A stretch of 32,556 nt of DNA from an uncultured virus (IMG/VR IMGVR_UViG_3300050343_000142) (taxonomy: Duplodnaviria > Heunggongvirae > Uroviricota > Caudoviricetes). The position numbers and the translations under genes were made by a program. Shown piece after piece: positions 14,653 to 31,914 of the stretch. Positions within the stretch are counted from its first letter, which is position 1. Each line of letters begins with the position of its first letter. The notes beneath the pieces were generated by a model that saw nothing but the letters and a program-made list of their open reading frames with translations, was not told the origin of the DNA and did no database searches. Location of the stretch: IMG/VR virus record IMGVR_UViG_3300050343_000142; one strand, 5' to 3'.

Positions 14653-14685
14653 TTTCATTCTTTTAAAAAAAGTGTATTGATAAAC

Positions 14686-14714: not shown

Positions 14715-14756
14715 GGTATTAATGATGTAACAAAGTCAGAGTGTAAATAGCACAAC

Positions 14757-15651: not shown

Positions 15652-15679
15652 TAAAAAAAATCAACAAATGGAGGAACAA

Positions 15680-15931
15680 ATGACAAATAAAACAGGATAT
15701 GAATATATCGTAACCGAACAAACATTAGACATAAGAAACTATACAGTAAAAAGTGATGTCCAACTTTCTCAATCAGAAATTTATGACGTCTTTTACGAAG
15801 TAGATTATGTTGACGGAAGTACTAATACTTTTGAGATTAATGGTAAAAAAGGAACTGTTACCTTTGATGGAACTGATTTCGGAGATGACGGACAGTTAGA
15901 TATTGAGGGCGACGAGAGGATAGATGAATAA
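15680..15931 (+). CDS. Acidic hypothetical protein
   Basis: GGAGG SD before ATG 15680. Confidence 0.7.
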   Translation: MTNKTGYEYIVTEQTLDIRNYTVKSDVQLSQSEIYDVFYEVDYVDGSTNTFEINGKKGTVTFDGTDFGDDGQLDIEGDERIDE

Positions 15932-16188
15932 TGAAAGTAAAAGACATGATAGCCATGCTTGAACTAGCCGATAAGGATAGTGAAGTAATGTTAGAAGTTC
16001 GAGATAAAGACATAAATCTTATTGGTTACTTTGAAGTGGGAAGTGATTGGGCAGAATATGGTGGTTATAGTCCCGATGAACTTGACTACTTTGAAAGTAT
16101 TAATGAGCCAAAAAGTAAAGCTAATGTTGAACTCACTATCAATAATGATGAGTGGGTAACACTTGGTATAGACATGGAGGAAAAATAA
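15931..16188 (+). CDS. Acidic hypothetical protein
   Basis: TAATG coupling. Confidence 0.7.
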   Translation: MKVKDMIAMLELADKDSEVMLEVRDKDINLIGYFEVGSDWAEYGGYSPDELDYFESINEPKSKANVELTINNDEWVTLGIDMEEK

Positions 16189-16370
16189 TGGAAGTATACG
16201 AATATAAATCAACCGACCCTAAACAAAAGTCAAATGATTTAGGTTTAACTATTTATTTCGACACCAATATAAGTAAAGATGAGGCTATAACGCAGACCTC
16301 GTTGTTACTAGACGGAATAGGTGCTGAATACACATTTGATATGTGGACGACACCAATGGAGAATGAGTAA
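16188..16370 (+). CDS. Acidic hypothetical protein
   Basis: GGAGG plus TAATG coupling. Confidence 0.65.
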   Translation: MEVYEYKSTDPKQKSNDLGLTIYFDTNISKDEAITQTSLLLDGIGAEYTFDMWTTPMENE

Positions 16371-16513
16371 TGGCAAAGAAATTTTATGCAAATATATCAA
16401 AAGATATAACTGTTTATGCTGATGATGAATCAGACGCACTATATGAAATAAGAAAGATTTATCAAAACTTTGGGGAAAACCTTGAAGTTGAGATATTTGA
16501 TGAGGAAGAATAA
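16370..16513 (+). CDS. 47-aa acidic microprotein
   Basis: TAATG coupling at both ends. Confidence 0.65.
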   Translation: MAKKFYANISKDITVYADDESDALYEIRKIYQNFGENLEVEIFDEEE

Positions 16514-16695
16514 TGCAAGTAGCAATGGAATGTCACGAAGATGGTGTGGAATTTGAATATAAATTAATTATTACGGGAATCTACATCGGCGACAAGAACG
16601 AAATTATAAACAAAGATAGTGTAATACGAATGCACGAGTTGTATGAAGCTGACTTTGAAATTGAAGAAGTAAAATTAGAAAGTGTAGGGAAGTAA
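16513..16695 (+). CDS. 60-aa acidic protein
   Basis: TAATG coupling. Confidence 0.65.
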   Translation: MQVAMECHEDGVEFEYKLIITGIYIGDKNEIINKDSVIRMHELYEADFEIEEVKLESVGK

Positions 16696-16817
16696 TGGCT
16701 AAACCAAAAACATATACAATGTTTGTATCATTTTCAGCTATGGATATGGAACAAGCAATAGAATACATCCACGACTTAGATGATAAAGATATTAGAAGTT
16801 GTTTGGAGGAAGAGTAA
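16695..16817 (+). CDS. 40-aa microprotein
   Basis: TAATG coupling at both ends. Confidence 0.6.
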   Translation: MAKPKTYTMFVSFSAMDMEQAIEYIHDLDDKDIRSCLEEE

Positions 16818-16933
16818 TGTATAAATTTGATGAGTGGTTAAGTGCTTGTCCTGTTCCTTATCATTTAGAAAAAGATAATGGGGATACTTTAAAATATAAT
16901 TTTGAAGTATGGAAGTTAGAGGAGAAAGAATAA
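16817..16933 (+). CDS. 38-aa microprotein
   Basis: GGAGG SD; TAATG coupling at both ends. Confidence 0.6.
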   Translation: MYKFDEWLSACPVPYHLEKDNGDTLKYNFEVWKLEEKE

Positions 16934-17112
16934 TGGTAGAACAACCAACAATATGGATAGAGGGAACTCTTACTATAAATGGTAAAGAGTATCCATTCGC
17001 AGTTGATAATGATATTGATAGTGGATTTGACCACGATAATTACAGTAGTCAAGCATACAATATTGTTAATGATTTGAATGGATTGGTTAACAGGTTAGAG
17101 GTGGAAGTGTGA
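16933..17112 (+). CDS. 59-aa acidic protein
   Basis: GAGGAG SD; TAATG coupling. Confidence 0.65.
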   Translation: MVEQPTIWIEGTLTINGKEYPFAVDNDIDSGFDHDNYSSQAYNIVNDLNGLVNRLEVEV

Positions 17113-17399
17113 AAGTTGATAAACCGACTGAACAAGTATATATCGTAACCTTTGAGGAAAGGTACGGAGAATTTGAGGAGTACTCATACTTAGGAGTATT
17201 AGGTGCTGATAAGATGTCAAGTCAAGAACTTGTAGAAGCTATGTGGTATGAAACCGACATGGAGGAGGATTTTGACGGACAATATGCAGACAATCCATAC
17301 TATTGGGTAGCAGGTAACGAGAAGTTAGTGAGAGTGGTAAGTAAGAAACCCATCAGCTCCGAACATCTCGACATCGTTAGCCAATATATAACTGTATAG
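17109..17399 (+). CDS. Acidic hypothetical protein
   Basis: GTGA overlap; GAGGTG SD. Confidence 0.7.
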   Translation: MKVDKPTEQVYIVTFEERYGEFEEYSYLGVLGADKMSSQELVEAMWYETDMEEDFDGQYADNPYYWVAGNEKLVRVVSKKPISSEHLDIVSQYITV

Positions 17400-17418
17400 A
17401 TAATATTGTAATTTTACC

Positions 17419-17447
17419 TATACATATAAATTTATTAAGGTTAGTAT
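17419..17447 (+). promoter_or_regulatory. Putative promoter with operator-like motif in the spacer
   Basis: TATACA-17-TAGTAT; same geometry as the promoter at 14686. Confidence 0.45.
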
Positions 17448-17483
17448 TTTACTAACTAATTAACTTAGAAAGAGAGTGAACTA

Positions 17484-17777
17484 ATGGAAGCAGTAGACAA
17501 TAAAACTATACAAAGTATTAGAGAGGGTAGAGGTAGCAAAATCTTTACTGATGAAAATATACAAACGTTAAGAGAAAATCCTAATCAATGGTTTTTAATA
17601 ACAAGTGTTGTAAACAATGACAACTATTTAAACATCATTAGGAGTTACAATTCCTCTGCAATTTACTTTAGGAACAAATTAAGAAAAGAATATGGTATGA
17701 CTATAGAAACTAAATGCAGTCAAAGTCGACATGACAAGTCTGCAAAACTATATGTCAGAATGAATGAGGAGGCATAA
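17484..17777 (+). CDS. Hypothetical protein
   Basis: 97-aa ORF, coupled downstream. Confidence 0.7.
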   Translation: MEAVDNKTIQSIREGRGSKIFTDENIQTLRENPNQWFLITSVVNNDNYLNIIRSYNSSAIYFRNKLRKEYGMTIETKCSQSRHDKSAKLYVRMNEEA

Positions 17778-18178
17778 TGGCTTATGAACCATGTGATTAC
17801 CCTATCGGTGTTAGTGAAATAGCTACTGTGTTGTCAGTCAAGCCGTCAACAGTTTCACAATGGGGAGTTCGTAAGAACTTACCCGATTGCGACGCAATAG
17901 TTAACGGAGGCAATACAAAGTTGTGGACACTAGAAACAATTTTAAATTGGGCTAGCTCAACAGGGCGTAACAACAGAAACTTAAATAACTGTAATGACGC
18001 TTTGCGTTTGGTTGTTTCAGACATGATGTCGGAAAAAGAAAATCAGATGGCGAGTGCAAGTTCTCGTTGGGATAAACTATCTGACGAGTGGAACACTTAC
18101 CGAGAGAGCATGGGTTTAGATACTTATCAGAAAGATAAGTTTAGAGATTTAGGCTCATACGAATCGGAGGAAGAATAA
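17777..18178 (+). CDS. Excisionase/AlpA/MerR-like HTH protein
   Basis: PIGVSEIATVLSVKPSTVSQW..LP..LW pattern. Confidence 0.7.
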   Translation: MAYEPCDYPIGVSEIATVLSVKPSTVSQWGVRKNLPDCDAIVNGGNTKLWTLETILNWASSTGRNNRNLNNCNDALRLVVSDMMSEKENQMASASSRWDKLSDEWNTYRESMGLDTYQKDKFRDLGSYESEEE

Positions 18179-18366
18179 TGAAAAAAATTAAAGTTCATTT
18201 CAATGGTTATCTAAGTTACTTGGCTACCGAGAAAAAGGGAGACATCAATCACTTAGACACATTAAAAGCAATGGAGAATGCTAGTGCAGACTTATCTACA
18301 CTACATCCAAAGTTTAATATTAAAATAACCGAAATGGAATCGGGCTACAACGGAGAAGAGGAGTAA
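18178..18366 (+). CDS. Hypothetical protein
   Basis: TAATG coupling. Confidence 0.65.
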   Translation: MKKIKVHFNGYLSYLATEKKGDINHLDTLKAMENASADLSTLHPKFNIKITEMESGYNGEEE

Positions 18367-18467
18367 TGAATAGAGCTGAAAGACGTGCCTCGAAGTCGAA
18401 AAAGAAGAGGCGATATACAGGTCTAAGTAAGAAACAAGTTCTTAGACCCGACACAATTGACAGATAA
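18366..18467 (+). CDS. 33-aa highly basic peptide (MNRAERRASKSKKKRR...)
   Basis: GAGGAG SD; TAATG coupling. Confidence 0.55.
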   Translation: MNRAERRASKSKKKRRYTGLSKKQVLRPDTIDR

Positions 18468-18527
18468 TCAACAAAGAAATTGGGGAAAATGAAAAACTTT
18501 TCCCCTATATAGTACCTAGGAGGTTAC

Positions 18528-18719
18528 ATGATAATAGACAACGGACATGATAGTGAGGGCAACTATGCACCTCATTGTTTGGAATGTCGAATGAACGGAT
18601 ATGACGCAACTTTAAAGTTCGCTGATATGTGTTCACGATGTCAAGACAATAAAGTAAAAAAATCTTTCCAATGGGAAAGAAGAAATGCAGTTGAAAACTA
18701 TATTGTTGACAATGCTTAA
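18528..18719 (+). CDS. Zinc-ribbon protein (CLEC..CSRC)
   Basis: AGGAGG SD; two CxxC motifs. Confidence 0.7.
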   Translation: MIIDNGHDSEGNYAPHCLECRMNGYDATLKFADMCSRCQDNKVKKSFQWERRNAVENYIVDNA

Positions 18720-18821
18720 TAAATTTACTAAGGTTGTCTTAATGAAACTATTAGGGCTAAAAAGAGAAAATCCCCTACTAAAAGGGGACTCTCTACTAAC
18801 CAACAAAGAAGGAGTTACATT

Positions 18822-19382
18822 ATGAACGGAAGTTCACAAGAATCCAACTATGAGAATACTTTAGCACAAGCATTGGAATTAACCCAAGCGTGTGCAAAGG
18901 AAATTGGCTACATAGCTGAATCAGACGGCGAATCAACAGATTCAATAACTTATTGGGAACAATATCCCGATGATATTCACGAGTTCATGACCCTTATGGA
19001 TAAGGTCGACCAAGTAGGTCGTGCAGTAAAACAAATAAAAGCTGACATGAAGTTGAAACTCGTAGAGGAGCTGGGCGACAAAGCAGTCAGAGTTGGTAAC
19101 AGAATAATTGTAGGTAAGACAAGTAAAACTTGGAAACCTTACGATAAACATAAAGTTATGGACTACGTTGGCGACGATTGGAAAATGGTTGTTAACCCTA
19201 CGTTTAGAACTACAGGAATAAAAGCACTTGCTACACAAAGAGGACAAGACCCAAAAGTAATTTTTGAGTCATTGTTTGAGCAAGTAGAAACAGATAATAT
19301 AACAATACTTCCCGATATGAAAGCACCAAAGTATTTACAAAAGCTAGATGACGGGGAAGTCAAAGAATTAGGAAAGGGATAA
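18822..19382 (+). CDS. Hypothetical phage protein
   Basis: AAGGAG SD; 186 aa. Confidence 0.75.
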   Translation: MNGSSQESNYENTLAQALELTQACAKEIGYIAESDGESTDSITYWEQYPDDIHEFMTLMDKVDQVGRAVKQIKADMKLKLVEELGDKAVRVGNRIIVGKTSKTWKPYDKHKVMDYVGDDWKMVVNPTFRTTGIKALATQRGQDPKVIFESLFEQVETDNITILPDMKAPKYLQKLDDGEVKELGKG

Positions 19383-19383
19383 T

Positions 19384-20370
19384 ATGCCTGCAAATATTGA
19401 AACAATGTTTAGTGCAGTAGAAACACCATGGCACAGAATTGGTGTGGTTACTGACTCAGCATTAACAAGTTCCGAGGCTATCGTTCAGTCGGGATTAGAT
19501 TGGAACGTTAGCGTCAGACCTTTAGTTACCTTTGGTAACGAGGGGCAAACAGAGGGTAAGTTTATTGACGTACCCGACAACTATGCAACTGTAAGAGATT
19601 CCGATGAATCCGTGCTAGGTGTGGTTGGTAAAAGATACGAGCCAATTCAAAACTTAGAATGCTTTAGTTTCTTAGACAATGTCTTAGATGACTATGACGC
19701 TAAGTATGAAACGGCAGGTGCTATTGACAACGGCAGAATTATTTTTGTTTTATTAAACTTAGGTAAAGATATTGTTGTTGGAGATGATGTAACAGTTCCG
19801 TACTTACTGTTGACTAACAGTCATGACGGCTCAACATCAATCAAAGCATTAACTACACCTATTAGAGTTGTTTGTCAAAATACTTTGACAATGGCTTTGG
19901 GTAACTACAAGAGTAGTTTCTCTTTTAGACATACCCAAAATGTTAGAGGTAGAATTGACCAAGCTAGAAACTCTTTGGAACTTTCTTACAAGTATGTAGA
20001 CGGATTCCAAGAGGAAGTCGAAAGACTTGTAGAACAACAAGTAACTGATGACCAATTTGCAAACTTGGTACAAACCATAATGCCTGTACCCGAACTTAAA
20101 GATGACGAAAGCAACATGCAAGTAGTTATTAAAGGTCGTCAAGCACATGAAAGTATTATGCAAAACTTTAGAAACCCCGAATTTTCAGAGCAATCTGAGA
20201 GTGCGTGGGCAGGAATGAACGCTATGAGTAATTATGAATTGTGGACTGCTCCTATAAGGAACGAGGAAAGAGATATGCGTATAGCCAAAAGAACTATACA
20301 GGGCAATCAAACTCCAAACACAAACATACTTCATAGACTACTAATTGGACAAAGGTATGAAAATATTTAA
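19384..20370 (+). CDS. DUF932 family phage/plasmid protein
   Basis: TPWHRIG, GLDWNV, YEPIQN, YETAG, NSHDGS, TPIRVVCQNTL. Confidence 0.92.
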   Translation: MPANIETMFSAVETPWHRIGVVTDSALTSSEAIVQSGLDWNVSVRPLVTFGNEGQTEGKFIDVPDNYATVRDSDESVLGVVGKRYEPIQNLECFSFLDNVLDDYDAKYETAGAIDNGRIIFVLLNLGKDIVVGDDVTVPYLLLTNSHDGSTSIKALTTPIRVVCQNTLTMALGNYKSSFSFRHTQNVRGRIDQARNSLELSYKYVDGFQEEVERLVEQQVTDDQFANLVQTIMPVPELKDDESNMQVVIKGRQAHESIMQNFRNPEFSEQSESAWAGMNAMSNYELWTAPIRNEERDMRIAKRTIQGNQTPNTNILHRLLIGQRYENI

Positions 20371-20920
20371 TCAATATATTGCTGACTGTGTAACCTGTGG
20401 TAAGCGAATTACCACAGATGAACACGGACAAAGTGCAGAACAACCACTTTACCTTAAAGCAGAGGGTGGCTACTCAGATATGTATGATAATTGGGCAGAC
20501 CACGAGGAGCAATCAATGAACTTAATTCCTTTTTGCCACAAATGTGGACATAGGATAATTAGGTTAATGGGTAAAGGTGTTGTTGAATATATTGACCCAT
20601 TGTCTACTACTTCACACGTAAGACCTTATAAGGCTTACAAAAGTAGGGATGATGTTAAAAGTTGGTGGCACTTTGGTTGGGATAATGTAGTCCTGCGAGG
20701 CTACATCTCAGCCATGTGGCACTATTTTCGTATAGGTGGCTTTAGATATTCGTGGGGTGCGTTCATGCATTTGTTTCATGGACAGAATTGGAGCTCTCTT
20801 AATAAATCTGTTAAGGACTTCTATCCTACCAATTATAAAGTATCATTTATAAGAGTACCAAAGAGATTTGGTCTCATGATACAACGTAAAATTCAAAAGG
20901 AGGGTTTTAAATGGTATTAA
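20345..20920 (+). CDS. Hypothetical protein with CxxC pairs
   Basis: CVTC, CHKC; operon position. Confidence 0.65.
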   Translation: MDKGMKIFNQYIADCVTCGKRITTDEHGQSAEQPLYLKAEGGYSDMYDNWADHEEQSMNLIPFCHKCGHRIIRLMGKGVVEYIDPLSTTSHVRPYKAYKSRDDVKSWWHFGWDNVVLRGYISAMWHYFRIGGFRYSWGAFMHLFHGQNWSSLNKSVKDFYPTNYKVSFIRVPKRFGLMIQRKIQKEGFKWY

Positions 20921-21423
20921 CATCCAAACAAGAATGGATAACTATGGTTAATTGGCTAAAATTAAGATTTGCGTCAATTAAATGGAACGACGCAGAAGTA
21001 AGAAGTTTGTACGAGGACTATAAGAATATAGACCCCGAACATATTTGGGGAGCAAGTCAACTTTGTTATCAGAACAACACAGAGTATATGTCATCAGCTA
21101 AGTTGATGTCGGTTGTTAAAGAGTTGCAGAGAGCCCCTAAAACTAACAAAGCCTTAACCATGGGCGAAGTAGTACAACTAAACAAAGGTGGTCTATTAGA
21201 CTATCTAAAGGCAAACAACTATGAATCATTTGCTCATGCAGTATATGATTTGAAGATGAAAAGATTGAGGAAAGGTGGAGCTATTAAATCCGAGACAACA
21301 CATTGGGATTTAGAAGCACCTTACGAAACTCAAAAAGAATTATGGTTACAAGAGTTCCCTACTGAGTGGACGATAGAATACTTAGAGAGACGCAGAGATA
21401 AAGCTATGCAAGGAGAAAAATAA
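20911..21423 (+). CDS. Hypothetical protein, possibly G39P-like helicase loader/inhibitor
   Basis: AAGGAGG SD; weak N-terminal resemblance; next to ssb. Confidence 0.5.
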   Translation: MVLTSKQEWITMVNWLKLRFASIKWNDAEVRSLYEDYKNIDPEHIWGASQLCYQNNTEYMSSAKLMSVVKELQRAPKTNKALTMGEVVQLNKGGLLDYLKANNYESFAHAVYDLKMKRLRKGGAIKSETTHWDLEAPYETQKELWLQEFPTEWTIEYLERRRDKAMQGEK

Positions 21424-21893
21424 TGGCTAGTAATAATACAATTACCTTAGTTGGTAACATATTAGAGCCCGAAGTTAGAAGTACCCAAACGGGTAAGACT
21501 CTAGTTAAGGCTCGAATGGTCGTCAAGACTTATGGCGACGCAGACGACATGTGGGTTAACATAACTGCATGGGAAAAATTGGGCGAAAACTTTGCTCAAA
21601 CTTTCCAAAGTCAAGCAAGCAAAAGTATCAGAGTTAGTGTTACAGGTAGACTCATGGAAGAAAAATGGGAAGACAAAAACACAGGACAAGAAAGAAAATC
21701 TTTCTCCGTAACTGCTGATTCTATTGCCGTGGTGTTGGATTACCAGACAGCTGGTGGCATTCAATATTCTGGCGAGGCAAAGCCCGAATCAACTTATGGT
21801 GGGGACAATGTTTCCATGGCTAAGGATATTCTTGGAGCTACAGAAAAGCCACAAGCAAGAACTGACTACGCACCTAACGAGGCACCCTTTTAA
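21423..21893 (+). CDS. ssb: Single-stranded DNA-binding protein
   Basis: ITLVGN..PEVR, WVNITAWEKLGEN, VTGRL..WEDK, C-terminal EAPF. Confidence 0.93.
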   Translation: MASNNTITLVGNILEPEVRSTQTGKTLVKARMVVKTYGDADDMWVNITAWEKLGENFAQTFQSQASKSIRVSVTGRLMEEKWEDKNTGQERKSFSVTADSIAVVLDYQTAGGIQYSGEAKPESTYGGDNVSMAKDILGATEKPQARTDYAPNEAPF

Positions 21894-21895
21894 TC

Positions 21896-22285
21896 ATGAG
21901 CCCAAGAAAAATTATTTCGCAAGAGCTAATTGATTGGGCTAGTGATGACGAATTGGTTGAAGGGGAGAACGTCGTGTCGTATACTCAATTGCCCATTGAA
22001 TTAGACAGTAAAGATGATTCTCTCCAACAACCGACCAACATAACTAACGAGCCAACAAATCAAATGGAAGTAGTGCAAAAACTTTTTGTATCAAACGGCA
22101 AAAATGGTGTATGTCATAGAGATTTTATGGACAACTATATTGCTCGTTTTGGTGCATTAATATGGACACTACGACATGAACAAAATTGGGTTATTGATAA
22201 AGAGTGGTGTCGAGATAAATCACATAATCACAAATCCAATCAGTATAAATATATATTTAAAGGAGTAGATAATGCAACTTATTGA
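21896..22285 (+). CDS. Putative winged-HTH protein
   Basis: ARFGALIWTLR..WVI pattern. Confidence 0.55.
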   Translation: MSPRKIISQELIDWASDDELVEGENVVSYTQLPIELDSKDDSLQQPTNITNEPTNQMEVVQKLFVSNGKNGVCHRDFMDNYIARFGALIWTLRHEQNWVIDKEWCRDKSHNHKSNQYKYIFKGVDNATY

Positions 22286-22514
22286 ACAATCTTTTGAGTA
22301 TGAGCACTTGACTGAGGAAGTCAAGAAATCAATGCTTGTTGAATACCTAAAAGACTTAGAGGCAAATCACTTTAGCTTAGCTTTAGTTGAGCCTAGTAAA
22401 TTACAAGAACCACAACCATATCAGCAATGGAAAGCACAGATTAGCCAAATAGAGAAACAAATCGTGCTTGTGAGGTCGAAATATGTAGATTTCTTCGGAG
22501 CTGAGGAGGAATAG
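22272..22514 (+). CDS. Hypothetical protein
   Basis: AAGGAG SD. Confidence 0.7.
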   Translation: MQLIEQSFEYEHLTEEVKKSMLVEYLKDLEANHFSLALVEPSKLQEPQPYQQWKAQISQIEKQIVLVRSKYVDFFGAEEE

Positions 22515-22636
22515 TGGGTGGTTGGTTACTTTGTGTTAGTTGTGATAACTATTCACATACACATAATGGTGGTGGATTGGTTAATAACGAACATTATTGT
22601 GAGCCATGCTATTCAGAACAGGAGTCTGTTTTATGA
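22514..22636 (+). CDS. 40-aa zinc-ribbon microprotein (CVSC..CEPC)
   Basis: GAGGAGG SD; TAGTG overlap. Confidence 0.55.
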   Translation: MGGWLLCVSCDNYSHTHNGGGLVNNEHYCEPCYSEQESVL

Positions 22637-22764
22637 GTAAAACGTACTATGTAAAATTTAATAATAAGGATTACCGAGAAAATCCTAATTTATTGATTGA
22701 ACTGCTAGAATATGAGCATAAGTTTCAAGAAATTATAGAGGATTATGATGAAAAGACTAAGTGA
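22633..22764 (+). CDS. 43-aa microprotein
   Basis: AGGAG SD; ATGA overlap. Confidence 0.5.
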   Translation: MSKTYYVKFNNKDYRENPNLLIELLEYEHKFQEIIEDYDEKTK

Positions 22765-23017
22765 ACTACAGATACAAGAGCTTGAATCCTTTGGTTATAT
22801 CGTAAGAAATAACGAATCTTTAGAAAATCAAGAGAAGAAAGCAAAGCAAGTTGCTAGAGAGCAACGACCTGTAAGCGTGAAAAAGTCAATAAATACAGTT
22901 GATGATGTCGAAGTTACGCCAGCTGGCAAAGATGCTGAGCATGTTGAACCTCTTGAACATCTTGAACAAGTTAAAAAGACTGATGATTACAGTTACTTAG
23001 ACGAGTTGGAAACATGA
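22745..23017 (+). CDS. Hypothetical protein
   Basis: GAGGA SD; ATGA overlap downstream. Confidence 0.65.
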   Translation: MMKRLSELQIQELESFGYIVRNNESLENQEKKAKQVAREQRPVSVKKSINTVDDVEVTPAGKDAEHVEPLEHLEQVKKTDDYSYLDELET

Positions 23018-23676
23018 GCGATAAAGAAACATTAATTAGAAAAATCAAACTTAGTGAGATTAAAACTGCTGACAAAAACCCTAAAGACCATGATGTTGGT
23101 GCTATATATCAAAGTATGAAACGCTTTGGATTTGTAGCGTTCCCTTTAGTAAACTCGACAACAGATAAGCTATTAGCAGGACATGGACGCTTAAAAACCT
23201 TACACATGATTAAAAGTGAGGGAGAGTTTGTACCTGCAAACATTGAAGTAACTGATGATGGAGATTGGTTAGTACCCTGCATATATTCAGCGACTATTGA
23301 GGATGAAGCTGAAGCACAGGCATATCTTCTTGCAGACAACAGATTAACTGAAATAGGTGGATACAATAATATGGATTTATTAGATTCATTACAGGAAGTT
23401 ATTAAGGAAACAGGGTCATTAGACGGCACAGGTTGGGACTTAGACTCAATTGAGGACATCATAGCTGATATGGAAAGGTCATCTTTTGAAGTAAAAGAGT
23501 ACGGAGATGATTCAGTTGAGGACGAAACATCAGTACAGGTATCCGTTGGTCGTTATAAGTTTAAAATAAATGCTGATGAATTTTATGAGTGGGAAGAAAC
23601 AGTTAAATCCCAAACTCAAACATCAGAAGTCAATGAAATAAATGATTGGATAAAAAATCAATTAGGCTTGACGTAG
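23014..23676 (+). CDS. ParB/Srx N-terminal domain protein
   Basis: NPKDH, SMKRFGF, LLAGHGRL, LLADNRL. Confidence 0.88.
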   Translation: MSDKETLIRKIKLSEIKTADKNPKDHDVGAIYQSMKRFGFVAFPLVNSTTDKLLAGHGRLKTLHMIKSEGEFVPANIEVTDDGDWLVPCIYSATIEDEAEAQAYLLADNRLTEIGGYNNMDLLDSLQEVIKETGSLDGTGWDLDSIEDIIADMERSSFEVKEYGDDSVEDETSVQVSVGRYKFKINADEFYEWEETVKSQTQTSEVNEINDWIKNQLGLT

Positions 23677-23695
23677 TCTAAAATCGTGCTATCCT
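23668..23695 (+). promoter_or_regulatory. Putative promoter for downstream ncRNA
   Basis: TTGACG-16-TATCCT with TGn extended -10. Confidence 0.55.
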
Positions 23696-23701
23696 TTATT
23701 A

Positions 23702-23990
23702 AGTAAAGAGGATGGATTTAACCATCTAGCCTCCTTTCTTTTAGTATGGGACGGCGAGGGTCTGGGCAACCAAACCCTCAATGTTTCCAAGACAATTACC
23801 ACTAAAACAGATGAATTAGAGAAATTAGTGGAAACACGTCGCAAGTCTGACAATGAGGTCGGACACAACTTCGGTTACTACAAATACCTTATATTTATTG
23901 CCTTAACAGGCTTATCTAAATAAGTGATGTCGTAATTTCAACGAAGGGCGAATCCTCTGGCGAAGCCATATCTTTTAAGCATTTTACCCT
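23702..23990 (+). ncRNA. Structured RNA candidate containing an anti-leader/anti-SD tract
   Basis: AGCCTCCTTTCTTTTAGTA at 23728-23746; hairpins capped by GCAA, GAAA and cUUCGg loops. Confidence 0.55.
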
Positions 23991-24650
23991 TTAAAACCTA
24001 ATGATTGTGGTACATACGCTAACGCAGTAACCCATCTGAGATTCCTTTTAAAAGCCTATAAACATTGACTTGATGTACCCAGAATCGCCGTCTTCTGCAG
24101 GACGCTTCGCTATCTCTTAATAGATTTATCTACATCTTAATGCATTGTGGAAACACAGAATGGCAGGTTCGGAGCGAGTTTCGACATCACGGAAAACATA
24201 CTATATGTAGTGGTTTGATGTCAAAAACGAGGTCGAATTTCATTTTGGACGCACCTCTCCCAATTCGTGCGTTCCCTTATTAGATTTATTAACAAGAGAA
24301 GCCGTTTACTCTCCCAGGGAAGCGTGGAAGAGAAATCTCGTCATCAAACCCTATTGATGTGTGCTTTATTTTTACGGGATTTACCCTATTGATGAGTGAT
24401 AAAAAAACACGGGATTTTCGGATAATATCTTTAGTTCCATCTTAGGACTATTTAACTAAATATATAACCTTCAGATATTGGACGTCAAGATAGGAAGCAA
24501 GCTGAAATATGGTGGATGATGGTGAAAAATGGTGAAAGTTGAAATCCAGTTTGGACAGACCTCTCCCCCGTTATAAGACATGTACTTAAAGTCATGTACA
24601 GCCTAACAAACTGCCACCATAACTTTACGTTTGGAATTTATTGGTTAAAG

Positions 24651-24693
24651 AGCCTGTGGAGGGAGTCGAACCCTCCATGCGACCATCCAGGCT
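24651..24693 (-). ncRNA. Minimal tRNA-like element (IR copy)
   Basis: Mirror of 7036..7078. Confidence 0.55.
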
Positions 24694-24698
24694 TTAGG

Positions 24699-24845
24699 TT
24701 ACTCCTCGTCGTCGTCAGAGTACCAATTATAGATAGTCCTATAATCGTCGCTCATGTCGACGTCTTTGGATAGGTAGAATGCAATTGCACCTGCCAAGCC
24801 GATAGTGAGGAAGAACCAGATTGTAGCAGTTAGTATTGTATCCAC
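24699..24845 (-). CDS. Small membrane protein (IR copy)
   Basis: Mirror of 6884..7030. Confidence 0.65.
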   Translation of the reverse strand: MDTILTATIWFFLTIGLAGAIAFYLSKDVDMSDDYRTIYNWYSDDDEE

Positions 24846-25894
24846 TACGCTCCTTTCCTTACTTGGTTTAACCCATTGATTAACGATGGTATCACCATGT
24901 CTTCGTTAACGAAGTCAGATGTAACACCGAACTTATTTGTATTAAGCAATCTCTCTGAGATGATTGGATACTCTGATTTGTTACCAATCATAAACAGATG
25001 TAACTGCTTTGATAGTCCGAAGTTTATAGCATCGAACATATCTTTCTTGTTGAGTCTACTTAGAACACAAACGAAGTCATAAGATGCTTGAACGAATTCA
25101 AGTCTACTTAATAGTCCATCGATGTTCATGTTAGAACGAAAGAACCTTAACTCAATTGTATAGGCATTGAGGAAGTTCAAGGCAGAATATCTGTCTCGTC
25201 TATCGTCCCACTTTGTAGAAGCAACTGCTAGTAGATTGTTATCAGCTGAGTTTCTGAAAGGCATTTGCCTTTTAGCCCAACTGTTTTCTGCTCTACCAGC
25301 TAGCCAGTTAAAGTAATCTTTCTCTGACGTCCAGAGGTTTTGATATAACTTTAAGAACAACCACAACTGAGTAGTCGTAAAGTATGACTTAGGAAGATGT
25401 ACATGCATTCCTGCAGTACTCGCATTCCAGGCATAAAAGCCTTTACTCTGCAATGCTTCCCAGTTCATCAACTTATGAGCTCTAACAGTCATAGGTTGTG
25501 TTACGAACTCCACACCATGACTAAGTGAGCTGTCAGTCTTAGCAATTATTAATTGTCTAAGTCTTGAGTCTGACTCGTCAATATAGTGTGGTGAGTAGTC
25601 ATGTAATTCTATCAGAGCTTCCTCTGTAGATTCACCTCTACTCATACCGTGGTCGGTTTCTGATGTGTGTTCTACTTCTATTTCCACTCCCATCGGAATG
25701 AATCCATCAGTAGCATCGACAGCAGATTTCAAGTACTCTTCTGTTTTATCGGCATGATGACCAACAAATACAGTATGATTACCTGGGTCATAACCACCTA
25801 GGGTCATGAATCGAGTATCAATGTACTTGACTTCTGGCTTATGGCTATAAGACTGCAGTTCGGGAACTACAGAATAGCATTCTTCTCTACACAT
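24845..25894 (-). CDS. Putative amidoligase (IR copy)
   Basis: Same protein as 5835..6884. Confidence 0.85.
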   Translation of the reverse strand: MCREECYSVVPELQSYSHKPEVKYIDTRFMTLGGYDPGNHTVFVGHHADKTEEYLKSAVDATDGFIPMGVEIEVEHTSETDHGMSRGESTEEALIELHDYSPHYIDESDSRLRQLIIAKTDSSLSHGVEFVTQPMTVRAHKLMNWEALQSKGFYAWNASTAGMHVHLPKSYFTTTQLWLFLKLYQNLWTSEKDYFNWLAGRAENSWAKRQMPFRNSADNNLLAVASTKWDDRRDRYSALNFLNAYTIELRFFRSNMNIDGLLSRLEFVQASYDFVCVLSRLNKKDMFDAINFGLSKQLHLFMIGNKSEYPIISERLLNTNKFGVTSDFVNEDMVIPSLINGLNQVRKGA

Positions 25895-26008
25895 AAGTGT
25901 ATCTCCTTTTTTTAGTATGTGCACTACAGTAACGTCGTAGTACTTAACGGGTGCTAGCACCTGTCTCCCCCCACAATTAAGTAGAGGGAGGTTAGCTACT
26001 AGCTAGCT

Positions 26009-26590
26009 TTAGTTCGTCTCCTCATCCTGTCTCGTGTATCTTACATGAGCAGCCGTGTTCATAGGAGTACTTCGTCTATTGGCGAACCAATTGACGATGT
26101 TTTTCCATGTAAAGAAGTGCTGTTGACCCTCATGACTATGATAGTCTCTGAGTCGCTCGCCCATCCATGATGAACCTTGTTGTCTAGTAGTTACGAACGT
26201 ATCCACATCTGAGTCAATCGTATCTTCAAACTCTTCATCAAGGTAGTCTCTATCTACCTCATCTGAATGGTCCCAACGATTGTCATGTAAGTCGTCCTCA
26301 GCTACGTCAACTGCATTACCAATAATGGCGGTGCATTCTTCTACATCACCTCGTTGCCAAGCATCAATTAAGTCGCTTAGCTCACCACTATCTTCTAGCA
26401 TATCCTCTAAAGATACATGAGTTTCTGCCTCATAGTGAACATTTTGGTATTGCATAACACGTTCTGTCCAACGATATTTAGTTGTGAACACCAACTCAAG
26501 TAACTTGCTAACGTCATCTTGTGTTGGATTCCTTTTTCCAATAAGCTTCTTCAGGTCTTCATGAAGGAACTTTGGTATTGGTTTGTTCAT
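26009..26590 (-). CDS. Acidic hypothetical protein (IR copy; E>D and T>S changes)
   Basis: Mirror of 5139..5720. Confidence 0.75.
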   Translation of the reverse strand: MNKPIPKFLHEDLKKLIGKRNPTQDDVSKLLELVFTTKYRWTERVMQYQNVHYEAETHVSLEDMLEDSGELSDLIDAWQRGDVEECTAIIGNAVDVAEDDLHDNRWDHSDEVDRDYLDEEFEDTIDSDVDTFVTTRQQGSSWMGERLRDYHSHEGQQHFFTWKNIVNWFANRRSTPMNTAAHVRYTRQDEETN

Positions 26591-26694
26591 AGTCTTTCTC
26601 CTTTTAGTATTGGCATGTATTTCTACATGGGTAAGCGTTTTACTTACCTGACGGGGCACCAAGCATGAAACTTGATACCCCGATAAGCTAAGTA

Positions 26695-27756
26695 CTACTT
26701 AGACTTTTTGTTTGATTTATTCTTCTTAGACTTTTTCTTAGTCTTAGTAGACATGTCAAACAAAGTAGGCTGACCGTCTGTAACAGGTTCTCCACCTTGG
26801 TAGAGCATTCCTGAATACAAAGCTGCATCAATCATCTCGTCAGATGCTTCGATGTTGTCATATACCCAATCAATTACATGCTCGATTGATTTACAATCTG
26901 AGTTGCACATTCTTTCATAGATACCAGCTACAGTCTTACCACACTCAGAACAACGAAGACCGTCCCATGTCATTTCGACACAGAACGAATCTTTCATTTC
27001 CTTGTGGTCAAGCACTCCAACTTCTTGGAATGGTAGCCACAGGTCTGAATGGTAAACCAACCAGTCATTGATTTCGCCTTCTTCTACTAAGTCGACGTCA
27101 TCAACTATTGGTAAGATTTCGCAATTATCTGAGATAGTTACGCCATCTATCGTTTGAGTTGTTCCTCGATGGTAGTTGTAGCTAACAAACTTCCTACTCT
27201 CGTAAGAGCTGTTACTAAACCACACACCTCCATCCCATACACCAAGCTTTTCACCTATGATATAAGTGTCATACTTAGTCTTAGCAGATGTTAAGAACAC
27301 CAACTTATTTCCGTAACCTTGGTTAATCATTTCGTCAACCATGTCTTGGAAGTAAGGGTCATCCAATTTCTGCACTGGAATGTACTTCATAAAGTAATCT
27401 ATGAAGAATCGAGTGTCAGATAACGCAGACTTAGCTGGTGGTATAAATGCTTCTGGCAATATACCATTATGTGCCATGACTGTGTTCTTGTTGACCTCAA
27501 ACGGGTGAGTATTGTCGATGCATACAGCACCATGAGTTGCTATTCTCATATGTACTAATATGTCTCGATTACCATATTTCTTCTGCGTCTCAAGTACAGT
27601 GTCAATAAAACTTTCACGTTCCATATCTTTCTCTACTTTGATTTCGCCATCGACGAAATATGCAATACCACCACCATCAGGGTTGCGTGTCCACATCTCT
27701 GATAGTTGGTCTTTGGTTACTTGTGCTCCTGCTGGAACACTAGCTATAATACACAA
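26695..27756 (-). CDS. Class II glutamine amidotransferase (IR copy)
   Basis: Same protein as 3973..5034. Confidence 0.9.
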   Translation of the reverse strand: MCIIASVPAGAQVTKDQLSEMWTRNPDGGGIAYFVDGEIKVEKDMERESFIDTVLETQKKYGNRDILVHMRIATHGAVCIDNTHPFEVNKNTVMAHNGILPEAFIPPAKSALSDTRFFIDYFMKYIPVQKLDDPYFQDMVDEMINQGYGNKLVFLTSAKTKYDTYIIGEKLGVWDGGVWFSNSSYESRKFVSYNYHRGTTQTIDGVTISDNCEILPIVDDVDLVEEGEINDWLVYHSDLWLPFQEVGVLDHKEMKDSFCVEMTWDGLRCSECGKTVAGIYERMCNSDCKSIEHVIDWVYDNIEASDEMIDAALYSGMLYQGGEPVTDGQPTLFDMSTKTKKKSKKNKSNKKSK

Positions 27757-27865
27757 TTGTGTACCTCCTTATTGTTCAACTTTTAGGTATGAACTTCACC
27801 TAGTATCCTTTCCTATATAGATACCATCGAGCCCACCATATTTCAGATGGGCTCTAGCTATCTAC

Positions 27866-29867
27866 TTATGACCAGTTAACTACATGGTCTACTTGTTCTT
27901 TGAACGAAGCACTAGATTCCATAGCCTCATTGGCTCTGGCTCTGTACCCTTTCGAGTCCAAGTATTCCGTGAGTTCTGGATACTGATGGCAATAACCAGT
28001 TGCATCTAACCAAGATACAAACAGGTATTGATTGTTTAAGTGATTCAAAACAATACCTAAATCGTCTGGTTCAAAAGCAGCTTCAAGCTCCTTCTGTATA
28101 CCACCATTGATATTTTGCATTTGATTAGTTTTGTAACTGAGTGTTACTGCGTCAGCATAAGTCATGAAAGCATCTAAGAACTGGTAGTTCTTGAGCAGTC
28201 TGGACTTCAATGTATTTGAAGCAAACGCTCTAACTTCCAGTCTGTCAGCATTCTCTATGTTAATCCAGCACGCTCTGTCAGGACTTGAAGTTCGCCTTGC
28301 TAGGTATCTTGATGTGCTACAAGCAATAGTAACTACTTGAGACTCACCATCATGATTACCACAGCGACATTCAAAGTCGTATCCAGACTCTGGTATTGAC
28401 ACTTCAGTAAGACTTAACCACTTAGCATATTCTGCATCTACTCTCTGATAGATGTCACCCAATATGTTATGGTAACCATCTTCACTTGCGTGAGTGTATT
28501 CCCATAGTCTCATATTGTGCCAAGCGATAAAGAACCAGTACTGACCTGTACTTAGTACACTCTTGGGGATATTCATATGAATACCACAACGTTTTGCATT
28601 GTATCCTCTGAACTCTGAGACCAAAGTCTCAAAGAAGTCATCGGGTAGTTTTGCAACGAACTGATGTGACATAGGTTGGAACTTGAACTCCAGACCATGT
28701 CTACCAGTCGATACGTCGTATGACCCAATAGCTAACTGATTGTTTGTACTACGTAATCTCTCATTGTTATAAGGAAAATCCTTATGCAATGGATGTAATA
28801 GTTTACGTATTCCACCAGTTAGTTGGTCTTGTAAGTCCCTATATTGAACTTCCAATTCCATTCCAATCGGTATACCCTTACGAGCATACTCTTTGGACTC
28901 ATGGGTTACATCCCTCTGTACTGTAGTGCCATATCTATTATTAGGTATAGCTACAGTACCTTGGTCAGTAGTCTGCCAAAAGGACCAATTTAGTTCAGCA
29001 GTGGTAGTCTTCATAATTGTAATTAGGAATGAATGGTACCACACCAACTCGGTCTTTTATCCAGTCCACTAAGTCGTAACGTTTGAAGTTACGTAAGTCA
29101 GTAACTCTAGTGATTAGTTCTGCTGAATAGTCAACAGTATCTAAGTCATCTTCGTTACCTACATAGTGGAAAGTGCCAGTGCTCAATTCATAGAAGTCAT
29201 AAAAGTATATTGTGCATAACACACATACTTTAATTGGTCGACTTCTACCCTGGTTGATAGTGAACATGTCAGTCGTAGGGTTACATACTGCACGACAGTG
29301 AGGACAGAACTTTCTAGTTCTTGAACTCTCTCTCATACCAGCAGTAGCAACAAGCTTACGCTTGAACATTTCTATCTTCCAGTGACTAGCTATGTTTCCA
29401 TATCTGCGTTCCTCACCATCATATGATAAGAACAACCAGTTCTTCATATCAGGTCTAGTTGGCACATACTCGAAGAAACGTACACGAAGAGTATTCTCCG
29501 TTGCTTCTACTTCATATCTAGCATTCTCCAATGCTTCCACAATATACATTCTCCTGTGAGAATAGTAACTATGGTTGAATGAGGCATGCTCATCACTTGC
29601 ATTGAACGTAGCTCTACGTCGTGAAACGTTTTGAGAACTATGGCGAGCAACTGCTACATCTACGAATCTTTCGTAAAGGTAGTAGTACAACTCATCCTCA
29701 CTATCGAAGTGATTATTGACAAGGTCATCCATGTCATCGTACTCAAAGTCGGCATCTCCACCAGTAAGCCAGTTACATGATTGCTCATGCATTTGACTTG
29801 GTAGTTCCTCCAACATAGCTACAAATTGAACAATCATCTCGTTAAACGATAGATTTTCTACTTTCAA
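27866..29867 (-). pseudogene. Frameshifted copy of the large amidoligase (or sequencing error)
   Basis: Extra C at 28999 relative to left arm splits the ORF into 290-aa and 393-aa pieces. Confidence 0.7.
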
Positions 29868-30023
29868 TTTATCTCCTTTTTTATTGGTTATACGGATTGA
29901 GGTTGACGCTCAATCTGTAGTTTTTACTGTACATTATTAATACTGCTACGTCAACTCAATATTTATAATGTTGGTGTTAAACACCCTAGACCCACTATAT
30001 CTAGTAGGTCCGAGCTGTTTAAG

Positions 30024-30149
30024 CTATATTGCCCATGACATATAACAATCATTGCAAGTAGGAGCCATACCTACTACACCGTGCCTCATGAACTTTCTAA
30101 ACTTTACTTTTGTATTCTTCATGGATTTACCACAATGACTACATAACAT
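30024..30149 (-). CDS. Zinc-ribbon microprotein (IR copy, Q>H)
   Basis: Mirror of 1581..1706. Confidence 0.65.
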   Translation of the reverse strand: MLCSHCGKSMKNTKVKFRKFMRHGVVGMAPTCNDCYMSWAI

Positions 30150-30164
30150 AAAGCCTCCTTTCTT

Positions 30165-30323
30165 TTACTTAGTTCTAGTCTCAAGAATTCTCAAACTGAT
30201 ACCTTCCTGTAAGAATGGTTCAGCAGTCATATCTTGAAGTTTAGAGGTAGCTTCTTCCTCATTATTTGCTTCGACCTTATATTGTTCTTTGACAATTTGC
30301 TCGATTACAAATATCTTCTTCAT
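30165..30323 (-). CDS. 52-aa protein (IR copy)
   Basis: Mirror of 1407..1565. Confidence 0.65.
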   Translation of the reverse strand: MKKIFVIEQIVKEQYKVEANNEEEATSKLQDMTAEPFLQEGISLRILETRTK

Positions 30324-30395
30324 ATAGTCTCCTTCTTTTAGTGGGTTAGTCGAATTACTAACACCCTAGAGCCCACGTGAATGAGCTCCGAGCTA

Positions 30396-30575
30396 TTAGC
30401 TATCTATCATTTCCTTAAAGAAACAATTGACATAAGCTGGTATCCAAACAAGACCCATAAGCTCTCGTTTTCTTTCTTTGGTAACATCCAAGTTGAATGC
30501 ATTCCACGTATATACCATCTCGTCCCTTGTCTCGTCTGACAATATAACTTTGGCAGTATCTTTTATTTTAGGCAT
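30396..30575 (-). CDS. 59-aa protein (IR copy, R>K)
   Basis: Mirror of 1155..1334. Confidence 0.7.
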   Translation of the reverse strand: MPKIKDTAKVILSDETRDEMVYTWNAFNLDVTKERKRELMGLVWIPAYVNCFFKEMIDS

Positions 30576-30648
30576 TTAGCCCTCCTTCTTTTAGTACTAA
30601 CCTTGTGTCAATACCCTAGAGCCCATCATTACAATGAGCTCCGAGTTA

Positions 30649-30849
30649 TTAACAGTCGGGACAACAGTTTGCTGTGAACAACATTAACTTAGGTGCTCCC
30701 TCGAATTCACCTAGGTTCACAAATAGATACTTTCCATAAACATCCATAGCAATATTCAATGCTTCAATGTCAGCAGTGTATCTACCTTTTGCTAAACTAT
30801 AAAAACACTCAATTAGATAAGTGATTTTCTTGAATAGACTCTTCTTCAT
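30649..30849 (-). CDS. Hypothetical protein (IR copy)
   Basis: Mirror of 881..1081. Confidence 0.7.
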   Translation of the reverse strand: MKKSLFKKITYLIECFYSLAKGRYTADIEALNIAMDVYGKYLFVNLGEFEGAPKLMLFTANCCPDC

Positions 30850-30919
30850 ATAGTCTCCTTTTTTTAGTGGTATCATTGTTAATACCCTAGAGTTCACCTC
30901 ATAAATGAACTCCGAGCTA

Positions 30920-31234
30920 TTAGCGTGGATAATTTGTATCTAGTTCAAGAAATTGTTGCCTTCTATTTTCTTGTTCAACTTCATCCAGAACACTCTCTAA
31001 CTTCTTTAAAGAATGTTTAGTATGGTTGTATCTACGCTTAGGTCCATACCAACTACTGAACTCCTTGATGTGCTCACACAACACATACTTCTTGTAGTCC
31101 GTAATTGTATATACCTCTACACGCCACCAGTGTGTCAAACTGGTAACATAATTCACGCCATAGAAACGATAGTTTTCAATGACCATGAAAACATACAGTG
31201 GTACTGCATGTATTAGTCTCATGATTAGATTCAT
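30920..31234 (-). CDS. Hypothetical protein (IR copy)
   Basis: Mirror of 496..810. Confidence 0.75.
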   Translation of the reverse strand: MNLIMRLIHAVPLYVFMVIENYRFYGVNYVTSLTHWWRVEVYTITDYKKYVLCEHIKEFSSWYGPKRRYNHTKHSLKKLESVLDEVEQENRRQQFLELDTNYPR

Positions 31235-31305
31235 GTCTCTCCTTTAGTATTGGATTAACCTTGTGTTAATACCTTAGAGCCTACCTTTCAATAGGCTCCG
31301 AGCTA

Positions 31306-31368
31306 TTAGCTAATATCGTACATAGCTTCTAATGCGTTTGGATTACGCACTATATCTTTAGCATCCAT
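31306..31368 (-). CDS. 20-aa microprotein (IR copy)
   Basis: Mirror of 362..424. Confidence 0.5.
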   Translation of the reverse strand: MDAKDIVRNPNALEAMYDIS

Positions 31369-31389
31369 ATAGCTTCCTCTCTTTCAGTT

Positions 31390-31581
31390 TTAGCTTATGT
31401 TTAAATCAGCTACAGTCTGTTCAACTGTTTGCTTCTTTTCATGTGCATGTCTTACGACTTTATCCATCAAATGGAATCTACACAAGACCTCCCTCTTATC
31501 CGTTTGACTCTGGACATAAGGTGGATATGTACACTGTTCCTCCTTCGTCTTAGAAGACGGAACCGTTTTGATACATTGCAT
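31390..31581 (-). CDS. Hypothetical protein (IR copy)
   Basis: Mirror of 149..340. Confidence 0.7.
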   Translation of the reverse strand: MQCIKTVPSSKTKEEQCTYPPYVQSQTDKREVLCRFHLMDKVVRHAHEKKQTVEQTVADLNIS

Positions 31582-31665
31582 ATGCATCTCCTTTCTTTTA
31601 GTGGTATGTTGGACTAACACACCATGCTGCCCACCAAGTCAAACTTGATGAGCAGTTGTGCTGTA

Positions 31666-31914
31666 TTAGAAACAGCCGTAGCAATCAGATAGTACTAAGG
31701 CAGGATGATGGTCACATTGATTCTTTAAAGTAGAATCTCCTATGTCTTCCATAGGTATGTAACCAACTTCTCTTTCACCAAAGCCAAGAGACTCTTCGAC
31801 AGTCTCAAGTCCAATCCAATATCTCCAGTTAGGAAATATATTGTTAAGCAACTCCCTACCTATAAACATATAAGTAAGTGTTGCAACGATTGCTGCTAGT
31901 AAATAGATATCCAT
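31666..31914 (-). CDS. Small membrane-anchored protein
   Basis: TACTAAAAAAAGGAGG leader before ATG 31914; hydrophobic N-terminus. Confidence 0.7.
   Translation of the reverse strand: MDIYLLAAIVATLTYMFIGRELLNNIFPNWRYWIGLETVEESLGFGEREVGYIPMEDIGDSTLKNQCDHHPALVLSDCYGCF

Follow-up and report, generated by a model that had tools for sequence, protein, structure and literature searches.

Most of the known phage regulatory RNAs come from temperate coliphages, with a few Hfq-dependent cases besides. By analogy, the closest phage precedent for the locus described here is the c4 RNA of phages P1 and P7, which is about 77 nt long. In Gram-positive bacteria without Hfq, small RNAs with C/U-rich seeds (6C/B11 in Actinobacteria, RsaE/RoxS in Firmicutes) carry unpaired pyrimidine motifs beside hairpins, and these pair with the G-rich Shine-Dalgarno (SD) sequences of several mRNAs; to our knowledge, actinobacteria lack Hfq. 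RNAs of this kind are chromosomal, measure about 80–120 nt and have C-rich loop motifs of 4–6 nt. Phage T4 relies on proteins, the nuclease RegB and the repressor RegA, which shut off early mRNAs at the SD (GGAG) or at start regions. The c4 antisense RNA of the P1/P7 immI region is described as a structured RNA that pairs around the ribosome binding site on phage mRNA and blocks translation (PMC12197685). It is processed from the operon of its own target, has a single target (icd/ant) and belongs to temperate coliphages. A cis-acting counterpart is described in Staphylococcus aureus, where a UCCCC motif in the icaR 3'UTR pairs with the SD of the same mRNA (PMC3868564). No report of a phage RNA with a full anti-SD aimed at a shared leader was found in the open-access papers that were searched in full text.

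The window analysed here is a stretch of 32,556 nucleotides from an uncultured tailed virus (Caudoviricetes; IMG/VR record IMGVR_UViG_3300050343_000142), and the locus under study is a predicted RNA gene at nt 23702–23976. Like c4, as that RNA is described, it would be a phage-encoded structured RNA with an exposed sequence complementary to a ribosome binding site region encoded elsewhere. Unlike c4, it has a predicted length of about 275 nt, its own predicted promoter, many predicted targets that share a leader, a full anti-SD in its seed and a probable marine actinobacterial host. It differs from 6C/B11 and RsaE/RoxS in being phage-encoded, in having a single tract of 19–25 nt with near-perfect matches to repeated leaders, and in giving no Rfam match to such families. 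With the icaR 3'UTR, as described, it shares an anti-SD in a non-coding part of an RNA, predicted here to occlude an SD; the icaR element acts within one mRNA, whereas no plus-strand gene lies downstream of the present locus, so that its action would be in trans. Judged from its sequence, the element is a candidate base-pairing translational repressor of a new variant, and a candidate new RNA family. If this is correct, a single RNA would be aimed at the leader common to an entire class of genes, in a marine phage that is abundant and uncultured. Class-wide translational shut-off would then be carried out by an RNA, a task for which T4 has the proteins RegA and RegB, and the locus would provide a natural anti-SD competitor RNA.

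The phage and its inverted repeat

The window is phage DNA that encodes a replication initiator, an Erf-like protein, an SSB, a DUF932 protein and a protein with a ParB-like nuclease domain. The nearest record (G001) is 94–99.8% identical to the window over the shared part, and spans the left junction and the repeat described below without the locus at nt 23702–23976. Near-identical DNA occurs in seawater and viral-metagenome runs from 14 studies. No close DNA relatives of the window were found in the phage collection, and protein comparison with the same collection gave a best match of 40% identity for the ParB-like gene product, to Microbacterium phages. Scans of IMG/VR with the tract, the ParB-like protein and the conserved RNA core returned no matches, nor did a scan of genome contigs with the RNA core. 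G001 carries a WhiB-like gene, the G+C content is 38% and SD usage is strong; the host is therefore probably a marine actinobacterium. Marine WhiB phages of 33–36% G+C have been ascribed to 'Ca. Actinomarinales' (PMC7771536). Contigs from the RNA-library runs X15–X18, compared with nt 8000–26000, covered the whole phage evenly; such contigs carry no strand, end or level information, and DNA carry-over may contribute to them.

A large inverted repeat (nt 1–7721 and 24008–31729) dominates the window. Its arms are 100% complementary, the sole difference being an additional base at nt 28999, in the right arm. The arms flank a unique segment of 16.3 kb with the replication genes. The match of G001 to the repeat continues to nt 32556, giving at least 8.5 kb per arm, and in that record the outer end of the arm is adjoined by structural genes, with capsid, portal, terminase and WhiB genes next to the repeat. 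The inner repeat boundary is a frequent break point of metagenome contigs. A repeat this large is unusual in a tailed phage and invites flip-flop isomers. Genes lying within it are referred to here as IR genes, and each is present as a mirror copy in the other arm.

A conserved, predicted structured RNA behind the ParB-like gene

The element lies in unique DNA between the stop codon of the ParB-like gene (nt 23676) and the right repeat boundary (nt 24008), 262 bases inside that boundary, where the ParB-like gene (plus strand) and the right-arm IR genes (minus strand) converge on a gene-free stretch of 1.1 kb. An earlier reading made from the sequence only had described a TTGACG/extended −10 promoter and, behind it, a pyrimidine tract between a GATGG/CCATC hairpin and a GCAA-capped hairpin, and all of these parts are present as described (Table 1). 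In the promoter scan, TATCCT (nt 23690–23695) is preceded by TG and separated from TTGACG by a 16-nt spacer; TGnTAnnnT is the usual form of the −10 element in actinobacteria. The same reading had proposed a small RNA at nt 23702–23782. Comparison with relatives favours a plus-strand RNA gene, but not the size of about 80 nt, since this interval corresponds to the first quarter, counted from the 5' end, of a conserved predicted RNA about 275 nt long. Conservation runs to ...GGCGAAGCCAUAUCUUUU(UU) at nt 23976, beyond which the lineages diverge, and no U-run follows hairpin 2. The window holds one copy of the RNA, and a search with the covariance model found no paralogues.

Table 1. Positions of the RNA gene, its predicted parts and targets, and other elements (window positions unless another record is named)
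Feature	Position	Strand	Remarks
−35 hexamer TTGACG	23668–23673	+	From promoter scan; TTGACA in relatives; overlaps last ParB-like codons and stop
Extended −10, TGcTATCCT	23687–23695	+	TGnTAnnnT in all relatives
Predicted RNA gene, ~275 nt	23702–23976	+	Ends inferred: 5' from the −10, 3' from the U-run at which conservation ceases
Hairpin 1, GAUGG-AUUUAA-CCAUC	23711–23726	+	GATGG 23711–15, CCATC 22–26; 8 sequence variants, most still fold
Anti-leader/anti-SD tract AGCCUCCUUUCUUUUAGUA (DNA AGCCTCCTTTCTTTTAGTA)	23728–23746	+	Between hairpins 1 and 2
Hairpin 2	23748–23787	+	Outer GGGAC/GUUUC with G·U pairs, inner GAGGGU/ACCCUC; GNRA loop GCAA 23766–23769
Stem CCACU/AGUGG	23799–23831	+	Read by eye, outside consensus fold; closes purine-rich loop in which AUGAAU..GAGAAAUU is near-invariant
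Conserved 3' multi-helix domain (covariance model R1)	23821–23976	+	Ends in small hairpin GGC-GAA-GCC and AUAUCUUUU
Predicted target, leader of 63-aa IR gene	128–142	+	ACTAAAAGAAAGGAG; 0 mismatches, 15/15; mirror 31588–31602 (−)
Predicted target, leader and AUG of 20-codon IR ORF	342–364	+	20/24 identical to minus strand of tract region; mirror in right arm
Predicted target, leader of IR gene starting 1155	1134–1152	+	3 mismatches, −26.1 kcal/mol; mirror 30578–30596 (−)
Predicted target, leader of IR gene starting 1407	1388–1409	+	−19.0 kcal/mol
Predicted target, leader of small IR gene starting 1581	1560–1578	+	2 mismatches, 16 contiguous at 1563–1578, −26.1 kcal/mol; mirror 30152–30170 (−)
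Long hairpin	8845–8925	−	GGACGG...CCTAGG-[UUUUUUGCCUCCUUUCUU]-CCTAGG...CCGTCC then GUUUUU; between two minus-strand genes
tRNA-like mini-helix	24651–24693 (−); mirror near 7036–7078 (+)		7-bp acceptor-like stem and T-arm GAGGGUUCGACUCCCUC
WhiB-like transcription factor gene	L002 (G001) 9425–9754	−	Beside small terminase

Metagenome contigs were searched with the ParB-like protein, which gave 28 loci, 18 of them with a ParB identity of at least 86%. One of the 18 (L013) ends 40 nt past the gene, and the element is present in all 17 of the others, which reach it. Conservation in related phages had been suggested as a check on the proposed RNA, and both promoter and tract were found throughout these loci: 17/17 retain TTGACR and TGnTAnnnT, separated by a 16-nt spacer that is constant in length and variable in sequence, and 17/17 also carry GCCTCCTTTCTTT. 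Part of the constraint on TTGACR comes from the last ParB codons; the −10 lies past the stop codon and is still kept. The tract is invariant in the 12 aligned RNAs (12/12), while the columns of the 5' end and hairpin 1 beside it are only 37% identical, the sequence of hairpin 1 being wholly replaced with its stem mostly kept. The most conserved parts lie in the 3' domain (columns 121–157 and 205–241, at 93–94% identity), which has many invariant unpaired bases. With a covariance model, weaker copies of this domain were also detected behind the ParB-like gene of distant lineages of 62–66% ParB identity, with E-values that are rough (2.8e-5 in L023, 2.7e-4 in L022 and 0.055 in L025). L022 has a small hairpin followed by GCCUCCUUU, and its tract differs (GCCUCCUUUAUGUAGUAAU). 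Lineages at about 50% ParB identity (L026–L030) carry other DNA behind the gene. Where the tract is altered (lineages L014/15, L016/17/19, L021 and L022), the contigs stop near the repeat boundary, before the leader-bearing genes. The records behind L021, L022 and L024 are MDTE01068610.1, VMBT01000475.1 and Ga0181566_10000614, the last two being 25.7 kb and 28 kb long. Rfam 15 gave no gathering-level match in the window and none at E-values up to 10 inside nt 23702–23976, and ARAGORN reported no tRNA or tmRNA genes in the window. Whatever its function, the locus is classed, on its alignment and predicted fold, as a putative new structured RNA family that is absent from Rfam.

The consensus fold comprises 61 pairs; 96.1% of its cells are paired, and at 12 of the pairs both sides change. 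None of 500 shuffles matched the observed pairing or covariation, and slid controls reached 28–42% paired. The RNA of the window folds at z = −3.5. Both strands fold better than shuffles, and the strand was assessed from features that differ between the two. Of the cells that are not Watson-Crick in the plus reading, 58 are G·U and 10 are A·C, and in the minus-strand mirror the 58 become A·C mismatches; the structure was predicted on the plus strand, which leans this count towards plus. Positions in helix interiors that alternate between Watson-Crick and G·U pairs are more telling for the strand than the overall count, and such columns are 164/178 (CG 6, UG 6), 188/262 (UA 6, UG 6), 191/254 (GU 11, AU 1) and 73/80 (GC 5, GU 5). 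At columns 71/82, by contrast, 10 sequences favour the minus strand. Alifold energies are −89.9 for the plus strand and −73.7 for the minus strand, the loop of hairpin 2 is of the GNRA type on the plus strand only, and the conserved promoter and terminal U-run are plus-strand features. Because the promoter is conserved, the helices covary and G·U pairs are in excess, a plus-strand RNA is favoured, and at the level of sequence comparison it is well supported.

Relatives differ by 1-nt indels that interrupt the reading frames of both strands. Coding by a 31-aa ORF on the plus strand or a 59-aa ORF on the minus strand was rejected on the same ground, as such indels fall inside both. The AUGAAU in the loop at nt 23799–23831 was likewise dismissed as a coding start, the ORF behind it ranging from 2 to 27 codons in relatives.

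Complementarity to the IR leaders and its interpretation

The leaders of the small IR genes are near-identical (ACUAAAAGAAAGGAGnCUAnAUG). Among the start regions of the window, the ACUAAA...GGAG leader is limited to repeat genes, with one partial exception at nt 15680. The tract occurs with up to 3 mismatches in five places including itself, against 0.03 expected from 100 shuffles; since the repeat duplicates everything, these five amount to two distinct leaders and the tract. Sequence checks agree with the complementarity reported earlier, namely 15/15 bases at nt 128–142, 16/16 at nt 1563–1578 and near matches at nt 1134–1152 and about 1388. The matched leaders lie 22 kb and 6–8 kb from the tract. 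The further claim that the match extends beyond a generic anti-SD is supported by predicted duplex energies. The 21-nt tract has a median of −16.7 kcal/mol with 11 IR starts and −10.8 kcal/mol with 31 unique-region starts (Mann-Whitney p 2.7e-5), and its median gain over the bare 10-nt CCUCCUUUCU is −7.4 kcal/mol against −2.1 kcal/mol (p 8e-5), in tests that overstate independence, as the IR leaders are paralogous copies and related items are counted. Predicted pairing at the IR starts spans −26.1 to −9.3 kcal/mol, the weakest value belonging to the gene for a 666-aa protein; the earlier proposal that the RNA shuts off the entire class goes further than these values do. The longest contiguous matches are 16, 15, 11, 10, 10 and 10 nt in IR leaders and at most 8 nt in unique genes, and after a rough correction for accessibility 5 of the 6 best sites are IR leaders. 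Probes slid along the RNA revealed no second target region that stands out beyond the tract.

In local alignment, the element's minus strand agrees with the leaders at 20–22 of 23–25 positions over the span that begins with ACUAAA and includes GGAGnCUAnAUG, and the rest of the intergenic module is unmatched. The complementarity takes in the 3' arm of hairpin 1, which could pair with the CUAnAUG of the leaders' start region. Likeness limited to about 23–25 nt is what a seed would show, and the alignment suggests that the seed may have arisen as an inverted copy of the leader. Within the RNA, the centre of the tract (UUUCUUUUAG) is predicted to be unpaired in most homologues (single-sequence ensembles). 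The GCCUCC of the tract is often predicted to be paired, with partners that vary between the region of the G-rich 5' arm of hairpin 2, the purine-rich 5' end and the 3' end; no conserved intramolecular partner of the tract was found in consensus or single-sequence folds. Opening the tract is predicted to cost 6–9 kcal/mol. Pairing of the tract with CCACUAAAA (nt 23799–23807) was considered, and by eye that segment more plausibly pairs with the invariant AGUGG at nt 23827–23831.

The interpretation preferred here, for which confidence stands at about even, is that nt 23702–23976 (plus strand) specify a stand-alone antisense RNA that acts in trans and masks both SD and start codon in the leaders of the IR class. 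A host-type promoter, with its −35 in the last codons of the ParB-like gene, would drive a structured RNA ending at the U-run, the 5' part of which would display the pyrimidine tract (U)AGCCUCCUUUCUUUUAGUA between the variable hairpin 1 and the GNRA-capped hairpin 2. The tract and the 3' arm of hairpin 1 would then pair in trans with the leaders of the small repeat genes, with a loop-first contact at the tract centre that spreads into the SD, and the SD and start codon would be hidden so that 30S subunits could not bind. Since CCUCCUUUCU equals the usual 3' tail of 16S rRNA, the RNA would compete with the ribosome for one docking site, and about 7 kcal/mol would be gained from the leader-specific extension. 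One RNA could thereby turn down the whole gene class, whether to time its expression or to confer immunity against related phages, and the 3' domain may give stability or bind a helper. Tract and leader would be expected to covary under the antisense interpretation, with the L022 leaders reading ...ACUACAUAAAGGAGGC. The large conserved 3' domain is unexplained by a simple antisense role.

A more specific form of the antisense interpretation, which is tentative and less likely to be right than wrong, sees the RNA as a mimic of the 16S rRNA 3' tail: a hairpin followed by CCUCCUUUCU, with a leader-specific extension, set on a conserved 275-nt scaffold. Such an RNA would out-compete the host 30S subunit for one class of phage messages and, as a single RNA, time the shut-off of all repeat-encoded, presumably early, genes, its seed having been born by inverted copying of a leader including the start codon. 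Some plant microRNA genes arose from their own targets in a manner like the seed origin proposed here. A 16S-tail mimic could also exclude superinfecting related phages that use the same leader.

Three other explanations have to be weighed against an antisense RNA. It is rather unlikely, though it would account for the 3' domain, that the locus makes a structured plus-strand RNA with another main job, in which that domain is a core binding a protein, a ligand or the ribosome, the CU-rich tract serves inside the fold or binds some other recogniser of the 16S tail, and the leader match merely follows from the pairing of anti-SD with SD. The highest conservation does fall in the 3' domain (93–94% in columns 121–157 and 205–241), and the domain recurs in L023 and L024/L025, where the tract differs or is weak. 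GCCUCC is predicted to be paired in most homologues, and a GAGG or GGAGG in the loop of a covarying hairpin (columns 161–181), present in 11/12 sequences, could by eye pair with CCUCC. However, the tract match extends 7–9 nt past the anti-SD into ACUAAA, and on its other side into CUAnAUG, and is specific to IR leaders; the folds gave no consistent intramolecular partner for the tract, and Rfam supplied no family, nor is there a known fold, to which a different function might be attached. An improbable explanation places the function on the minus strand, where the tract would be one more IR-type leader with SD and AUG at the end of the leftward unit of the right arm, either as a live ribosome-loading site for a mini-ORF or as the relic of a lost gene. 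Its best argument is that the minus strand reads ACTAAAAGAAAGGAGGCTAGATG, a complete leader with the AUG at the spacing of real IR genes. The element is also downstream of minus-strand IR genes, an AUG or UUG stands 3–7 nt behind GGAGG in 7/9 lineage types, and a weak terminator-like hairpin follows on the minus strand.

The mini-ORF itself is not conserved, however. The 8-codon MVKSILFT of the window, for which the tract would be the ribosome binding site according to the alternative raised in the sequence-only reading, varies by lineage from M* and MI* to 5, 8, 10 or 22 codons, or has no start; the peptide is conserved neither in length nor in sequence and is absent in L018/L020, which argues against that alternative. 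A relic, for its part, would not keep at least 14 invariant bases beside a freely varying hairpin. Promoter and U-run are conserved on the plus strand, G·U pairs inside helices would read as A·C mismatches if the minus strand were the RNA (58 against 10), and the 250 nt upstream of the supposed leader are conserved as a structure and not as a gene. No conserved minus-strand promoter was seen, and the DNA to the right of nt 23976 varies between lineages. Very improbable is a buffer at the point of convergent transcription, in which the hairpins and U-rich tract are terminators or an RNA-stability element for the ParB-like operon (plus strand) and the repeat-arm genes (minus strand), and the likeness to leaders is incidental. 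The two transcription units do converge here, a U-rich run comes after hairpin 1, and the scan shows a minus-strand terminator-like site at nt 23726–23711. Yet hairpin 1 is weak (0 to −7 kcal/mol) and has UAGCCUCC between it and the U's, and terminators need neither a covarying structure of 275 nt nor a 19-nt match to another gene class. The more restricted proposal of an intrinsic terminator of the ParB-like operon was rejected, as the scan shows no plus-strand terminator at this place and the hairpins are separated from the ParB-like stop codon by the promoter.

Other elements of the window

The sequence-only reading had joined the tract RNA with an element near nt 8850 and a 'mini-tmRNA' into one RNA-based system of translational control. 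The first of these, a long hairpin, is conserved and has an anti-SD tract of its own, the second one in the window, but seems to act in cis. A 78-nt block of it is identical in G001 amid diverged flanks, and GCCUCCUUUCUU in the loop region precedes by about 40 nt the GGAGG of the gene that follows (start at nt 8831), the two being paired in the minimum-energy fold. From this folding model, the hairpin is probably a cis translational control or terminator element, and in that respect it is closer than the tract RNA to the icaR cis type as described (PMC3868564). The tRNA-like mini-helix lies in the gene-free inner end of the repeat (837 bp), and its reading as a mini-tmRNA was given up: ARAGORN found no such gene and Rfam no gathering-level match, only a sub-threshold trace consisting of a mascRNA-like hit of 19.2 bits and a 17-nt match to the T-arm of tmRNA (RF00023; nt 24659–24675, minus strand) at 14.1 bits, against a gathering score of 47 bits.

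Between divergent gene clusters, nt 14610–15620 form a gene-free stretch of 1 kb with at least five sets of the inverted motifs GGTAGCTTG...CAAGCTAYC. Contigs from the RNA runs show replaced segments at this place in relatives. The stretch could be an origin or iteron region, or could hold further RNAs.

Within the repeat, at nt 418–1760 and in the mirror copy, each small gene is followed by a common module that consists of the stop codon, a hairpin (CTCGGAGCnnn...nnnGCTCT), TA(A/G)GGT, about 20–30 nt, the ACTAAAAGAAGGAG leader and ATG. TA(A/G)GGT fits TAnnnT, and the modules may be units of terminator and promoter for monocistronic messages. Further inwards, nt 3973–8060 (and the mirror copy) encode a class-II glutamine amidotransferase-like protein of 353 aa and a 371-aa protein of PHROG 16683; a gamma-glutamyl cyclotransferase-like protein (nt 7707–8060, minus strand), just inside the unique part, is grouped with them. 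This gene set may represent a pathway for the modification of a small molecule or a macromolecule. On the strand that does not carry the repeat genes, a short way upstream of the gene for the 371-aa protein, AAGUAGAGGGAGGUUAGCUA at nt 5731–5760 (minus strand) and 25969–25998 (plus strand) shows strong complementarity to the tract (−25 kcal/mol).
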